64,000 bases of DNA from the NCBI RefSeq assembly GCF_024223415.1, contig NZ_CP100500.1, one strand, 5' to 3'. The notes under the pieces are model-generated. The model made no database searches and was not told the DNA's origin. It was given only the letters and a program-made list of their open reading frames with translations. The translations under genes were made by a program, and so were the position numbers. This document shows, one piece after another, positions 4,956-54,918 of this stretch. Positions within the stretch are counted from its first letter, which is position 1. Each line of letters opens with the position of its first letter. The DNA comes from Escherichia coli (GTDB lineage: Bacteria > Pseudomonadota > Gammaproteobacteria > Enterobacterales > Enterobacteriaceae).

Positions 4956-5122
4956 GTAAGCGTCGCATCAGGCAATGGTACTCGGATGCCGGATGCGGCG
5001 TGAACGCCTTATCCGGCCTACGGTTCAGGCACAGGTTTGTAGGCCTGATAAGACGCGTAAGCGTCGCATCAGGCAATGGTGCTCGGATGCCGGATGCGGC
5101 GTGAACGCCTTATCCGGCCTAC
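4956..5122. repeat. REP/BIME cluster, right part, immediately downstream of ybaQ
   Basis: Repeated gccggatgcggcgtgaacgccttatccggcctac and gcctgataagacgcgtaagcgtcgcatcaggc units. Confidence 0.8.
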
Positions 5123-5486: not shown

Positions 5487-5623
5487 AGTTTTTAACTGTT
5501 GCTTCCCTGTGAATAGCGATACAAGAACATACTGAATCATACAAACACATTAAACAAGTCCCCAACTCCATTTGCGCCATCCCTCCCCGCGCGCTAGCAT
5601 GATATTTCACAAAGGGAGGTCGT

Positions 5624-6418
5624 ATGGATCTGTTGTACCGGGTAAAAACGCTTTGGGCCGCGCTGCGCGGTAATCATTACTCCTGGCCTGCCATCGATAT
5701 CACCCTCCCCGGCAATCGCCATTTTCATCTGATTGGCAGTATTCATATGGGTAGCCACGATATGGCTCCCCTGCCCGCCCGTTTGCTCAAAAAGCTCAAA
5801 AACGCCGATGCGCTGATCGTCGAGGCGGATGTTTCCACCAACGATACGCCTTTTGCTAATTTGCCTGCCTGCGAGGCGCTGGAAGAGCGCATTAGCGAGG
5901 AGCAACTCCAAAAACTGCAGCACATTAGCCAGGAGATGGGCATTTCTCCCTCACTCTTTTCTACCCAACCGCTGTGGCAAATCGCGATGGTTCTTCAGGC
6001 GACGCAGGCACAAAAACTGGGGCTGCGGGCAGAATACGGTATCGATTACCAGCTATTGCAGGCGGCGAAGCAACAACATAAACCCGTGATTGAACTGGAA
6101 GGGGCGGAAAACCAGATTGCCATGTTGCTCCAGCTCCCTGACAAAGGACTGGCGCTGCTGGACGATACGCTGACCCACTGGCATACCAACGCACGGTTGC
6201 TGCAACAAATGATGAGCTGGTGGCTGAATGCGCCGCCGCAAAATAATGAAATAACGCTGCCCAATACGTTCAGTCAGTCGCTGTACGATGTGCTGATGCA
6301 TCAGCGAAATCTCGCCTGGCGGGATAAATTACGCGCCATGCCGCCGGGGCGATATGTGGTCGCGGTCGGTGCACTACACCTGTATGGAGAAGGGAATTTG
6401 CCGCAAATGTTGCGCTAA
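5624..6418 (+). CDS. ybaP: TraB-family protein YbaP, 264 aa
   Basis: ORF track; recalled protein and synteny. Confidence 0.9.
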   Translation: MDLLYRVKTLWAALRGNHYSWPAIDITLPGNRHFHLIGSIHMGSHDMAPLPARLLKKLKNADALIVEADVSTNDTPFANLPACEALEERISEEQLQKLQHISQEMGISPSLFSTQPLWQIAMVLQATQAQKLGLRAEYGIDYQLLQAAKQQHKPVIELEGAENQIAMLLQLPDKGLALLDDTLTHWHTNARLLQQMMSWWLNAPPQNNEITLPNTFSQSLYDVLMHQRNLAWRDKLRAMPPGRYVVAVGALHLYGEGNLPQMLR

Positions 6419-6500
6419 AAAAATGGCCAATATCGCTATTGGCCCGTCAAAGAGGAATTTCATTTTTTTATTATTATGCCGTCACTTTAAGCGACGGTGT
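6417..6500 (-). ncRNA. chiX: Hfq-dependent sRNA ChiX (MicM/SroB)
   Basis: Reverse complement reads ACACCGTCGCTTAAAGTGACGG...GGCCAATAGCGATATTGGCCATTTTTTT, matching recalled ChiX; ybaP-ybaK intergenic; 3' T-run overlaps the ybaP stop. Confidence 0.9.
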
Positions 6501-6606
6501 AACTCGATTGTCGCTCAATCTCACCATCCTGCCAATACTCTTAGGCAAGATGACTCTTTTTTTTGGACCGCCATCAGGCGTATGCTTGCTTCGTTTTTTT
6601 GTTTAA

Positions 6607-7101
<495 letters not shown>

Positions 7102-7104
7102 GCA

Positions 7105-7133
7105 TTGTGCCGGATGCGAACATCCGGCACTTT
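7105..7133. terminator. Hairpin between convergent ybaK and ushA, likely bidirectional terminator
   Basis: gccggatgcgaacatccggc palindrome in the 36-bp gap. Confidence 0.5.
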
Positions 7134-7137
7134 CGGA

Positions 7138-8790
7138 TTACTGCCAGCTCACCTCACCTTTCGGTTCATAAACACTCACATCCAGCGGCGAGCTTTTCTG
7201 GATATACGCTTTCAGCACTTCGGCATCAATAAAGCCGGTATTCACATAGCCCGGTTTGTTATCAAGGCGCGGATATCCATCACCGCCGGTGGCATTGAAG
7301 TTTAATGTCGCCATACGGTAAGTTTTCGCTGGATCGACCGGTTCGCCTTTGATTTTAAGGTCGTTCAGTTTGCCGTCTTTCGCCACAAAGCTAACGTTGG
7401 CAAATTGCGGGTAGGCACCTGAATCTGGCTTCATTTGTGCGACGGCTGTCAGGTAATCAATCACCTCTTTACCGGTCATGTCGGCATACACCACCACATT
7501 GCCGAATGGCTGCACTTTCAGCACGTTTTTATAGCTGATATCGCCAGCTTCGATAGAATCACGAATTCCTCCTCCGCTCATCACCGCAAAGTCGGCACCA
7601 GTGCGATCCATTTGTGCTGCCAGAATCAACCGCCCCATATTGGTCTGTACAAAACGCACTTTGTCACGATCGCCTTCCAGACGACCATTGGTTTCGCCTA
7701 TTTTCACTTCCAGCTGCGCTTTGCCTTTGTTCTGGAACGGTGATAACAGCGAGATCATTTGCTGGTTTTCAGCGATTTCCGGGGTGTACAGCACGCGCTC
7801 GCTTTTCCCGTCTTCCCAGGTCACTTTCTTCTTCAGGTTCACCGGAATCAGCTGGTAGTTAACCATTTTCATTTCGCCGTTGCGAAACTCAAAGTCGGCC
7901 CGTCCCACGTATTTGCCCCACTCATGCGCCTGTACAATCCAGATGCCGTTTTGTTGATCCGGTTTGCATGGCGTACCTGGAACGTAATCTACCTGCTTTT
8001 TATTTTCCGCTGCCATACAGACTGGATCTTGCGAGTGACCGCCGACAATCATCGCCAGCGATCCGGCAGGCAACGCGCGTGCCATCTCCACATCGCCCGG
8101 TGCGTTAGAACCGTGATCGCCGTTATCGTAATGCCCCATATGTGTCGCCGCGATAATAATGTCTGGCTTTTCTGTCTGTTGCAGCTCCTGAATCACCAGC
8201 TTCGCTTCATCGGCGGGCTTACGGAACTCAATATCGGTGAAGTTTTCTGGGTTGCCTAACTTCGCTGTGTCATCCGTCGTCAGACCAATAACGGCAATTT
8301 TCAGATCCTGACGCTTAAACAGCGCCCATGGTTTAAACAGGCGCTCGCCGGTACTTTTCTGGTAGATATTGGCAGAAAGTAACGGGAACTTTGCCCACTT
8401 TTCCTGCTGGCGTAATACGGTGAGCGGGTTATCAAATTCATGATTACCGATCGCCATCGCGTCATAGCCCACCAGATTCATACCGCGAAAATCAGGTTCG
8501 GCATCCTGTAAGTCAGACTCGGGCACGCCAGTGTTAATGTCGCCACCGGAAAGTAGCAGCACGCTACCGCCTTCAGCCGCAACCTCTTTGCGGATACCAT
8601 CCACCAGCGTTTTTTGCGCCGCCAGACCATATTCGCCATATTCATTGCGCCAAAAATGCCCATGATGATCATTGGTATGCAGAACTGTAATTTTGTAGGT
8701 TTTATCCTGCTCATACGCCAGAGCAGCTTCACTCGCCAGTGTAAATGTGGTTAACAGTGCTAACGCCACGCCCCGCTGCAATAATTTCAT
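7138..8790 (-). CDS. ushA: UDP-sugar hydrolase / 5'-nucleotidase UshA, 550 aa, periplasmic
   Basis: ORF track; signal peptide MKLLQRGVALALLTTFTLASEA, metallophosphatase motifs. Confidence 0.95.
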   Translation of the reverse strand: MKLLQRGVALALLTTFTLASEAALAYEQDKTYKITVLHTNDHHGHFWRNEYGEYGLAAQKTLVDGIRKEVAAEGGSVLLLSGGDINTGVPESDLQDAEPDFRGMNLVGYDAMAIGNHEFDNPLTVLRQQEKWAKFPLLSANIYQKSTGERLFKPWALFKRQDLKIAVIGLTTDDTAKLGNPENFTDIEFRKPADEAKLVIQELQQTEKPDIIIAATHMGHYDNGDHGSNAPGDVEMARALPAGSLAMIVGGHSQDPVCMAAENKKQVDYVPGTPCKPDQQNGIWIVQAHEWGKYVGRADFEFRNGEMKMVNYQLIPVNLKKKVTWEDGKSERVLYTPEIAENQQMISLLSPFQNKGKAQLEVKIGETNGRLEGDRDKVRFVQTNMGRLILAAQMDRTGADFAVMSGGGIRDSIEAGDISYKNVLKVQPFGNVVVYADMTGKEVIDYLTAVAQMKPDSGAYPQFANVSFVAKDGKLNDLKIKGEPVDPAKTYRMATLNFNATGGDGYPRLDNKPGYVNTGFIDAEVLKAYIQKSSPLDVSVYEPKGEVSWQ

Positions 8791-12149: not shown

Positions 12150-12262
12150 TTGCCGGATGTAAAATATGAAAAATATGTAGGCATGATAAGACGCGCCAGC
12201 GTCGCATCAGGCATCGAGATGCCAAATGCCAGATGCGGCGTGAACGCCTTATCTGGCCTACG
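12150..12262. repeat. REP/BIME elements between convergent ybaL and gsk
   Basis: gcatgataagacgcgccagcgtcgcatcaggc and gccagatgcggcgtgaacgccttatctggcctac. Confidence 0.8.
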
Positions 12263-19577: not shown

Positions 19578-21515
19578 TCAAATGGGGCGGATACTTTCTT
19601 CATCCAGCTCCGCATCGAAAAACCGACGCAGGGTCTGAATATTATTATCCGCAATAATGGACTCGCGCGCCTGCGCAAGTTTTTCTTCGTATATCGCCTG
19701 ACGCCACTCCAGCGGCGTACGCACCGCGGGATTATCATCTTCAACGATAGTCAGTTCAACCGTTGAACCTTTTAACATGCTCAACGCTTCAGCCAGTTTT
19801 TGCTGTGCACCGCGGTTGTTCAAATGCCGCTGAGAGGAGCGCAAATGCAGACATACTGCGTTGTCGCTCTCCTCTTTCCAGGCATTTAACGCCACCTGTT
19901 CGACCAGTTTTGGTAGCGAAAGTTGGCTCACCTGTGCCGCCCACGGGTCGCGCTCAATGGCTTCTGCCGCTAGCTTCGCCGCCAGTTCCGGCGTTTTTTC
20001 ATGTTCCAGCGCTTTTTTCAGCGCCTTCGGCGTGGCGACCACTTCTTTTTGCTGTATCACCGGAGTGGTCGCCTTCCAGCGATACGCTTCTTTTTTGGCT
20101 GGCGCTTTTTCCAGCGCCGATGGCACCGGACGCGCCTGAACGCGATCGGTGACCGAAGCCAGTCTTTCCAGCGCAGCGTTATTCACCGGCCGCGCGCGGG
20201 TAGCGGCTGCCGGTTCACTCTTTTTTGCTTTGGTTGCTCCCTGCACGCGCTGCAACTGCTGGCGCGCCGCCAGCACCTGGCTGGTGGTTTCCGGGAGCGG
20301 TACAGTCGGTGCCTGCTGCGGCGCTGATTGCGGTTGCGGTTGCGGCGGCACCTGGGTTGGCGTCATTACTGCCGTTGGCGCGACGGGTGCAAAGGACTGG
20401 CGTGGCACTTCTGGCTCAGGCAGCGGCATACGCGGATGGAACGCCAGCGCGCGCAGCAGCGTCATCTCAACGCCCATGCGGCGGTCCGGCGCATACGGTA
20501 ATTCTTTGCGACCAATCAACAGCGTCTGATAGTAAAGCTGAATATCCGTCGGCGGTATGGTGCGCGCCAGTTCACGCATCCGCAGCTCGATGGCGGCCAT
20601 GTCGTTGCCAAGTGCAGCAGGCGAAAGTTGTACCATCGCAATACGATGCAACAGGCCGAGCATTTCCACCAGCAACGCTTCCCACTCGATACCACGGGCA
20701 GCGGCTTCATTAATCAGCGCCATTACGCGCTCGCCGTTGGCCTCGACCATCGCTTCAACCAGCGACAGCGCCTGATCGTCGTCAAGCGTACCCAGCATCG
20801 CACTGACCGCCTGGGTTGAAACCTGGCCGTCACCGCTGGCAATCGCCTGGTCGGTCAGACTTAAGGCATCTCGCAGGCTGCCTTCAGCGGCGCGCGCCAG
20901 CAATTGCAGCGCCCGCGGCTCGTGAGCGATATGTTCTTCATTGAGGATGTGCTCAAGTTGATGGCGAATTTGCTCGACATCCAGCGCCTTGAGATGAAAT
21001 TGCAAACAGCGCGACAAAATCGTCACCGGCAATTTCTGTGGATCGGTCGTCGCCAGCAGAAACTTAACGTGCTCCGGCGGCTCTTCAAGAGTTTTTAACA
21101 GTGCGTTAAAGCTGTGGCGCGACAGCATATGCACTTCGTCGATGAGATAAACTTTGAAACGACCACGCGCCGGAGCGTACTGGACGTTATCCAGCAGGTC
21201 GCGAGTGTCTTCAACTTTGGTGCGCGAGGCGGCGTCGATTTCAATCAGATCGACAAAGCGCCCCTGCTCGATTTCACGACAGTTATCGCACACGCCGCAC
21301 GGCGTCGCGGTAATGCCGGTTTCGCAGTTTAGCCCCTTCGCCAGCAGTCGGGCGATAGAGGTTTTTCCGACGCCACGGGTACCGGAAAAAAGATAAGCAT
21401 GATGAATACGCCCTAACGACAAGCCGTTCGCCAGTGCGGTCAGCACATGTTCCTGGCCGACGACGTCAGCAAAGGTTTGTGGGCGCCATTTTCGGGCTAA
21501 GACCTGATAACTCAT
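19578..21515 (-). CDS. dnaX: DNA polymerase III tau/gamma subunit DnaX, 645 aa in this sequence
   Basis: ORF track; Walker A GTRGVGKT; internal recoding site. Confidence 0.96.
   Translation of the reverse strand: MSYQVLARKWRPQTFADVVGQEHVLTALANGLSLGRIHHAYLFSGTRGVGKTSIARLLAKGLNCETGITATPCGVCDNCREIEQGRFVDLIEIDAASRTKVEDTRDLLDNVQYAPARGRFKVYLIDEVHMLSRHSFNALLKTLEEPPEHVKFLLATTDPQKLPVTILSRCLQFHLKALDVEQIRHQLEHILNEEHIAHEPRALQLLARAAEGSLRDALSLTDQAIASGDGQVSTQAVSAMLGTLDDDQALSLVEAMVEANGERVMALINEAAARGIEWEALLVEMLGLLHRIAMVQLSPAALGNDMAAIELRMRELARTIPPTDIQLYYQTLLIGRKELPYAPDRRMGVEMTLLRALAFHPRMPLPEPEVPRQSFAPVAPTAVMTPTQVPPQPQPQSAPQQAPTVPLPETTSQVLAARQQLQRVQGATKAKKSEPAAATRARPVNNAALERLASVTDRVQARPVPSALEKAPAKKEAYRWKATTPVIQQKEVVATPKALKKALEHEKTPELAAKLAAEAIERDPWAAQVSQLSLPKLVEQVALNAWKEESDNAVCLHLRSSQRHLNNRGAQQKLAEALSMLKGSTVELTIVEDDNPAVRTPLEWRQAIYEEKLAQARESIIADNNIQTLRRFFDAELDEESIRPI
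20220..20226 (-). other. dnaX programmed -1 frameshift site (A AAA AAG) with downstream stem-loop, producing gamma
   Basis: Plus strand cttttttgc is the reverse complement of gcAAAAAAGag; GC-rich stem-loop at about 20170-20215. Confidence 0.8.
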
Positions 21516-37044: not shown

Positions 37045-37158
37045 TGGGTGGGGGCCCTGCCAGCTACATCCCGGCACACGCGTCATCTGCCTTGGCTGCT
37101 TCCTTCCGGACCTGACCTGGTAAACAGAGTAGCGTTGCGGGAGAACCAACAGAGCCCC
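37045..37158 (-). ncRNA. ffs: 4.5S RNA, SRP RNA component
   Basis: Reverse complement begins GGGGGCTCTGTTGGTTCTCCCGCAACGCTACTCTGTTTACCAGGTCAGGTCCGGAAGGAAGCAGCCAAGGCAGATGACGCGTGTGCCGGGATGTAGCTGGCAGGGCCCCCACCC, matching recalled 114-nt 4.5S RNA; ybaA-atl intergenic. Confidence 0.93.
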
Positions 37159-54731: not shown

Positions 54732-54813
54732 AGAGCTCTCTCTTAGTTTAATTTCCGCCAGGTAATCAGATGACACGACTGTGCTTCACGCCATCTATTA
54801 ACATGTACGTCAG

Positions 54814-54842
54814 TATATGGGGATGTTTCCCCCACATTCAAC
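54814..54842 (-). promoter_or_regulatory. Sigma-32 heat-shock promoter of lon (TTGAA -35, CCCCATAT -10)
   Basis: Minus strand reads cgttgaatgtgggggaaacatccccatatactgacg upstream of lon. Confidence 0.75.
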
Positions 54843-54918
54843 GCCGAGAATAGAGGAAAAATTAAAGGGGAGATAAAATCCCCCCTTTTTGGTTAACTAA
54901 TTGTATGGGAATGGTTAA

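Follow-up and report, generated by a model that had tools for sequence, protein, structure and literature searches.

The ChiX small RNA terminator is packed against the ybaP stop codon in Escherichia coli

The window analysed here is a stretch of 64,000 nucleotides of Escherichia coli DNA (contig NZ_CP100500.1), of which positions 6301-6700 match K-12 MG1655, read in reverse orientation, without a difference; published K-12 positions were converted as window x = 6417 + 507287 - MG1655 coordinate. The ybaP gene occupies 5624..6418 of the plus strand including its stop codon TAA (6416-6418, +) and encodes 264 aa in the list of open reading frames; the annotation of identical E. coli DNA in RefSeq places the product in the TraB/GumN family, and ybaP homologues carry PF01963. 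Its transcription start was reported at U00096.2 507321 (-) with 330 reads (Kim et al., 2012), which converts to window position 5607 (+) and leaves a leader of 17 nt; the gene is therefore not silent. Downstream of ybaP and co-directional with it lies ybaK, the gene of Cys-tRNA(Pro) deacylase (6622..7101, +; NCBIfam NF007951, 329.9 bits), followed by ushA on the other strand (7138..8790, -; open reading frame list), which is convergent to ybaK. The gene of ChiX, a known Hfq-dependent small RNA of 84 nt (6417..6500, -), sits between ybaP and ybaK and is transcribed in the direction opposite to both. The convergent arrangement of chiX and ybaP that had been predicted from the sequence is thus found both in the open reading frames and in the Rfam placement. 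Five further Rfam matches were found in the window (5042-5119, 12180-12258, 20181-20245, 37055-37151 and 54803-54898); these are two naRNA4/REP-type elements, the dnaX frameshift element, the 4.5S (SRP) RNA and sraA.

The Rfam scan of the whole window places sroB (RF00368) at 6417..6500 on the minus strand with 82.1 bits, where the gathering score is 44, and the alignment covers positions 1-83 of the 83 of the model. The corresponding gene of MG1655 is b4585, at 507204..507287, and its product is known as ChiX, SroB, MicM or RybC. The mapped ChiX start at U00096.2 506428 (425 reads; Kim et al., 2012) corresponds to window position 6500, and the dominant 3' end in the Term-seq data of Adams et al. 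(2021), at U00096.3 507287 in all three growth conditions, corresponds to position 6417. A promoter scan found TTGGCA and GACAAT separated by a spacer of 17 nt (6507..6535, -), 7 nt upstream of the mapped start, and both hexamer regions were found again in related loci. ChiX therefore has a promoter-like site of its own together with a published start and a published 3' end, as an independent transcript should, and the identity and boundaries given for it in the original prediction are backed by the covariance match and by both mapped ends. Compared with the ChiX RNA of Enterobacteriaceae (RF00368), the RNA encoded here is the same one, as judged from the full-length match, the ybaP-ybaK synteny, the 5' and 3' ends, the CCUCUUUGACGGG region and the Hfq-type terminator; no difference is seen, the window being identical to MG1655 at this place.

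The whole 84-nt RNA folds with a free energy of -24.1 kcal/mol (z = -3.9). The fold contains a 5' stem-loop (6479..6497, -) and, closer to the 3' end, an invariant single-stranded stretch, CCUCUUUGACGGG (6443..6455, -), in which the alignment columns are 100% conserved and which we take to be the target-pairing region of ChiX, acting in chiP/chbBC pairing. In RIL-seq tables chiX forms chimeras with chbC.chbB.IGT and with chiZ. The linker of ChiX carries a run of seven A in K-12 and in some other E. coli (window 6464-6470 (+), ChiX nt 32-38), which is AAAAAUA in other Escherichia and which pairs with the 3' U7 tail in the minimum free energy fold.

The 3' part of ChiX reads, in the minus-strand order, GGCCAAUA-GCGA-UAUUGGCC (6444..6425), a single A (6424) and seven U (6423..6417). 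The stem-loop (6425..6444, -) has a stem of 8 bp and a GCGA loop and was called by the terminator scan on the minus strand only; the U-tract (6417..6423, -) has 6 to 8 U in other species, its length varying between species and also between strains. As signs of an intrinsic terminator we took a stem containing G+C, a short loop, at least 5 U within the 8 nt that follow the stem and an RNA 3' end lying in the U-tract, and in the chiX direction all of them are present, with the mapped end inside the tract. The element is like the canonical Rho-independent terminators of Hfq-binding sRNAs in its 8-bp stem (4 G-C pairs), its 4-nt loop, its U7 tail and the mapping of the 3' end to the last U, and it differs from them in that the distal two U here also complement the stop codon of the other strand and are consequently doubly constrained.

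The overlap between chiX and ybaP amounts to 2 nt (6417-6418), the AA of the ybaP stop codon templating the last two U of ChiX, and the T of this TAA is the base directly past the ChiX 3' end. The last sense codon of ybaP, CGC (6413-6415), belongs neither to the T-run nor to the mapped RNA. The earlier claim that the T-run coincides with the last codon and the stop of ybaP consequently holds for the stop codon, of which two bases are shared, and does not hold for the last sense codon. The same 2-nt overlap is found in the K-12 annotation (chiX 507204..507287 (+), ybaP 507286..508080 (-)), it is visible also in the older annotation on which Kim et al. (2012) relied, and the 3' end at 507287 is labelled "primary chiX, antisense ybaP" in the Term-seq table of Adams et al. 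(2021). The overlap is thus already on record, annotated and tabulated, and is ordinary genome compaction. In PGAP-annotated E. coli genomes chiX is unannotated, and a search of the literature on ybaP, and on ChiX with antisense or RNase III, found nothing on this junction. GadY is a cis-antisense regulator that overlaps the 3' end of gadX by tens of nt, and this overlap drives pairing and processing. The chiX/ybaP pair is like it in having an sRNA gene convergent with an mRNA 3' end, but without read-through from ybaP just 2 nt would be common to the mature ChiX and ybaP RNAs.

The hairpin that ends ChiX is also transcribed from the ybaP strand, with a predicted stability of -10.9 kcal/mol as compared with -12.4 kcal/mol as ChiX RNA. 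In this direction the sequence after it is CGUCAAAG, in which one of 8 nt is U (in longer form, CGUCAAAGAGG); a U-tract directly after the stem is absent and the terminator scan makes no plus-strand call. Since those bases are the invariant pairing region of ChiX, a U-tract on the ybaP strand cannot evolve there. The stem starts 6 nt after the ybaP stop codon and, from the known ribosome footprint, a ribosome terminating at this stop would cover the 5' arm of the stem. A ribosome at a stop codon suppresses terminators lying too near that stop. Between the ybaP stop and ybaK, the only candidate of the terminator scan on the plus strand is a weak 5-bp stem (6575-6588), and the antisense of the ChiX 5' hairpin (-12.8 kcal/mol) is also without a U-tract. 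The Term-seq lists for the three conditions, which are thresholded and may therefore omit a ybaP 3' end of low abundance, contain no 3' end on the ybaP strand (MG1655 minus) between the ushA and copA regions, and the three rows labelled "ybaP" all refer to the end of ChiX. Neither ybaP nor ybaK nor chiX has an entry in the SMRT-Cappable-seq supplements. The hairpin is accordingly a canonical, efficient and one-directional intrinsic terminator for chiX, and not a canonical one for ybaP.

Taken together, these data are best explained by a one-way ChiX terminator packed against the ybaP stop codon, the polymerases coming from ybaP being thinned in a non-canonical manner, and we consider this explanation likely. 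The ybaP polymerases would be stopped or thinned within or near chiX, head-on encounters with the very dense transcription of chiX being the probable cause, and any ybaP transcript that does get past this region would be degraded after pairing with ChiX, which is in vast excess.

The original prediction held that the same hairpin probably ends both transcripts. In its most developed form this means a shared bidirectional terminator, in which the hairpin pauses polymerases arriving from both sides and head-on and trailing collisions release both of them, with the consequence that the ybaP mRNA would end just 3' of the hairpin and overlap ChiX by about 30 nt. Hairpins without a U-tract can indeed set both 3' ends of convergent pairs according to the collision model (Ju, Li and Liu, 2019; Wang et al., 2022); a likeness to intrinsic terminators is not required of such elements, and they are most effective when the partners are strongly expressed. 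The chiX/ybaP pair is like this class in being convergent, in having one stable RNA hairpin exactly at the boundary and in having one partner, chiX, that is extremely highly expressed. A second convergent junction in the window gives further weight to this possibility: between ybaK and ushA (7099-7140) there is a shared, G+C-rich hairpin of 10 bp (7107-7130, about -19 kcal/mol) without a U-tract on either strand, and the ushA 3' end lies at window position 7102, 1 nt from the ybaK stop codon (Term-seq; Adams et al., 2021). The ybaK/ushA hairpin looks like the U-less type of bidirectional terminator. It resembles the chiX/ybaP junction in the convergent genes, in the shared hairpin, in a 3' end abutting the stop codon of the other gene and in the "primary, antisense" flag, and differs from it in that its hairpin is U-less on both strands and both of its partners are protein genes. 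Furthermore, one Term-seq condition has 99 3' ends carrying the "primary" as well as the "antisense" flag, and an arrangement of the chiX/ybaP type is commonplace.

Against a shared terminator, only the ChiX 3' end is documented at this junction, no ybaP-strand end being called at or near the hairpin in any of the three Term-seq conditions, and the chiX/ybaP pair is absent from one supplementary file of the collision study of Wang et al. (2022). The hairpin would also be occluded by the ribosome terminating 6 nt upstream of it. In addition, one partner is an sRNA gene of just 84 nt whose promoter is within collision range, so that collisions would be equally possible at that promoter and would give scattered rather than defined ends. 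Finally, the hairpin is in one direction an intrinsic terminator of the textbook kind, while the members of the bidirectional class are described as unlike intrinsic terminators. For these reasons a shared terminator appears to us possible but rather doubtful, and we retain the one-way ChiX terminator with a non-canonical thinning of ybaP transcription.

The cross-talk documented between the two genes runs from chiX to ybaP, the reverse of what the original prediction had emphasised. Adams et al. (2021, supplementary file 2) list a Rho-dependent region at 507468 (+), antisense to ybaP, which corresponds to window position ~6236 (-) and lies about 180 nt past the ChiX 3' end. [quoted passage not shown] The ChiX terminator thus leaks by a few per cent at most, and this leak enters the 3' part of ybaP in the antisense direction and is removed by Rho; the stretch of ybaP covered by it extends over 6236..6416 (-), the position of its distal limit being imprecise.

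Transcription of ybaK bears on what could be expected of ybaP read-through. A weak ybaK start lies inside chiX at 6484 (+), antisense to ChiX nt 1-17 (U00096.2 506444 (-), 8 reads, 138-nt leader; Kim et al., 2012), and the sequence given upstream of it matches window 6434-6484; in Klebsiella the ybaK start lies outside chiX, with a leader of 57 nt (Kim et al., 2012). The -10 element of the start at 6484 is the A/U linker of ChiX (TATTAT). Our promoter scan found no ybaK promoter on the plus strand. The idea that ybaK has no promoter of its own and needs transcription through chiX was rejected, given the published starts in E. coli (weak) and in Klebsiella. Since ybaK has its own starts in both organisms, it is independent of read-through from ybaP.

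The locus is arranged otherwise in relatives without chiX. No ChiX was found near the more distant YbaP orthologues (44-50% identity). In the distant relatives L043 (ybaP end 1821) and L044 (ybaP end 1221) ybaP and ybaK overlap by ATGA, and in L035 (2739-2826) the two genes are 97 nt apart, without chiX and without a terminator between them; in L041 and L045, also without ChiX, ybaK is not adjacent to ybaP. From these gene arrangements chiX appears to have been gained inside the ybaP-ybaK pair, and it sits inside a pair that elsewhere is co-directional and probably co-transcribed. The published inference that ChiX arose within Enterobacterales agrees with the chiX-less relatives found here, and given these relatives some co-transcription of ybaP and ybaK through chiX may persist. 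The opposite event, an apparent natural deletion of chiX, was observed in two proteins in which YbaP is fused to YbaK. The first, P0118 (Klebsiella-like, 461 aa, 4 members), has its fusion junction at a repeated CCGGAT and reads the chiX promoter region as protein; the second, P0066, is E. coli-like and has 298 aa. The loss of chiX in these cases would derepress chitoporin.

On this background chiX could be imagined as a collision-based insulator that splits an ancestral ybaP-ybaK operon, with the embedding of the stop codon in the U-tract as a functional coupling, such that strong induction of ybaP would produce anti-ChiX RNA, or interfere with chiX, and relieve the repression of chitoporin. 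We consider this very unlikely.

That read-through from ybaP would be antisense to the whole of ChiX is trivially true, and the weight of the argument lies on the amount of such RNA. A passage of McQuail et al. (NAR 2024) states that "ybaP.EST3UTR was considered to be ChiX". In the RIL-seq tables of that study ybaP.EST3UTR is placed at 507215-507289 on the minus strand, i.e. at window 6415-6489 (+), which is the ybaP strand, and the strands are correct for other genes in the same table. In the Hfq RIL-seq library ChiX accounts for ~5.31 M of ~8.15 M fragments (65%), and the opposite-strand ybaP.EST3UTR for 9,824 fragments, or 0.18% of ChiX; the odds ratio of the ybaP.EST3UTR-ArcZ pair is only 2.6, as compared with tens to hundreds for genuine pairs. 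On these two figures the entry was rejected as evidence for a real Hfq-bound anti-ChiX RNA. The signal probably reflects strand bleed or template switching of the reverse transcriptase from the hyper-abundant ChiX, and gives an upper bound rather than a transcript. Antisense reads across chiX are therefore present in RIL-seq, as the original prediction had suggested looking for, but they are indistinguishable from artefact. In Term-seq the ChiX 3' end has scores of 445,000-955,000 and the opposite strand has no call, whereas among the rows examined called ends went down to scores of ~800-1400; ChiX exceeds every mRNA end of the region by hundreds-fold. The level of anti-ChiX RNA would then not be above a few tenths of one per cent of that of ChiX (~0.2-0.3%), and it therefore cannot titrate ChiX off the chitoporin mRNA. 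The relevance to ChiX titration of chitoporin targets that had been claimed for the overlap thus fails on quantity.

The same figures weigh on the proposal that ybaP and ybaK are still co-transcribed through chiX and that the embedded 84-nt anti-ChiX segment acts as a regulated sponge or decoy when ybaP is induced. It draws on the ATGA overlap of the two genes in L043 and L044, on their 97-nt spacing without terminator or chiX in L035, on a ybaP-ybaK spacer whose plus strand has no canonical terminator save the weak candidate at 6575-6588, and on the existence of opposite-strand RIL-seq fragments at 507215-507289. These fragments are nevertheless those that fit strand bleed or template switching, with their low share of ChiX and low odds ratio with ArcZ, ybaK has starts of its own, and with the excess of ChiX over every regional mRNA end any titration would be stoichiometrically negligible, so that a sponge is scarcely credible here.

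The conservation of the junction was followed in ybaP loci taken from one genome per species, 38 loci in all, from about ten genera (Escherichia, Salmonella, Citrobacter, Klebsiella, Raoultella, Enterobacter, Trabulsiella, Pluralibacter, Intestinirhabdus and others). In the window and in 35 of the 38 loci ybaP ends in TAA, and the AA of this stop opens the A-run that is the complement of the ChiX U-tract. When the sequences are anchored on the conserved GEGNLP motif of YbaP, the T+A-run is in frame with this motif in all 38 ChiX-bearing sequences, even in five loci where the C-terminus of YbaP is extended by 3-4 residues and has an unrelated sequence. The exceptions agree with this pattern, L026 having an extra TAG three codons upstream and L038 an upstream frameshift. 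Among the 38 sequences the majority base reaches 39-53% in the columns of the last sense codon and 100% at the T, A and A of the stop, and the identity of 100% continues through the stem and the CCUCUUUGACGGG region. The A-run is 6-8 long, so that between a quarter and a third of the ChiX U-tract lies opposite the two bases of the stop codon, and the distance from stop to stem is 6-7 nt in every locus that has its stop in the A-run. The Rfam sroB model was found in 19 of 20 related loci tested (77-88 bits). Within the species, 5422 of the 5426 complete E. coli genomes have the 69-nt junction, and the differences in the most divergent E. coli copies are confined to synonymous sites of ybaP and a single base in the A/U linker of ChiX.

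A long U tail matters for Hfq-binding sRNAs. The T-A-A remains invariant while the codons before it drift because TAA is the only stop codon able to extend the U-tract, and the simple reading of this conservation, as far as the alignments go, is that the three stop bases would be held by both genes in a dual constraint. The idea that the overlap is due to chance or to annotation, and is unconstrained, could appeal to its length of just 2 nt and to the generic terminator scan, which gave 3 sites against 2.5 expected in shuffled sequence, i.e. no excess, but it is refuted by a 3' end located with single-nucleotide precision under three Term-seq conditions and by an in-frame T+A-run that is kept across genera, in spite of differing C-terminal lengths and sequences, and is invariant within E. 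coli, and we give it practically no credence.

For practical work the junction has some consequences. A deletion of chiX that takes the U-tract also takes the ybaP stop codon, and cassettes inserted in ybaP could drive transcription into chiX, which should be considered in strain construction. In the interpretation of data, an opposite-strand "ybaP.EST3UTR" signal should be taken for what is probably the bleed-through of an extremely abundant RNA. The biological importance of the arrangement is small and it opens no new question; the in-frame TAA that stays invariant across genera is a neat case of two functions constraining the same bases.
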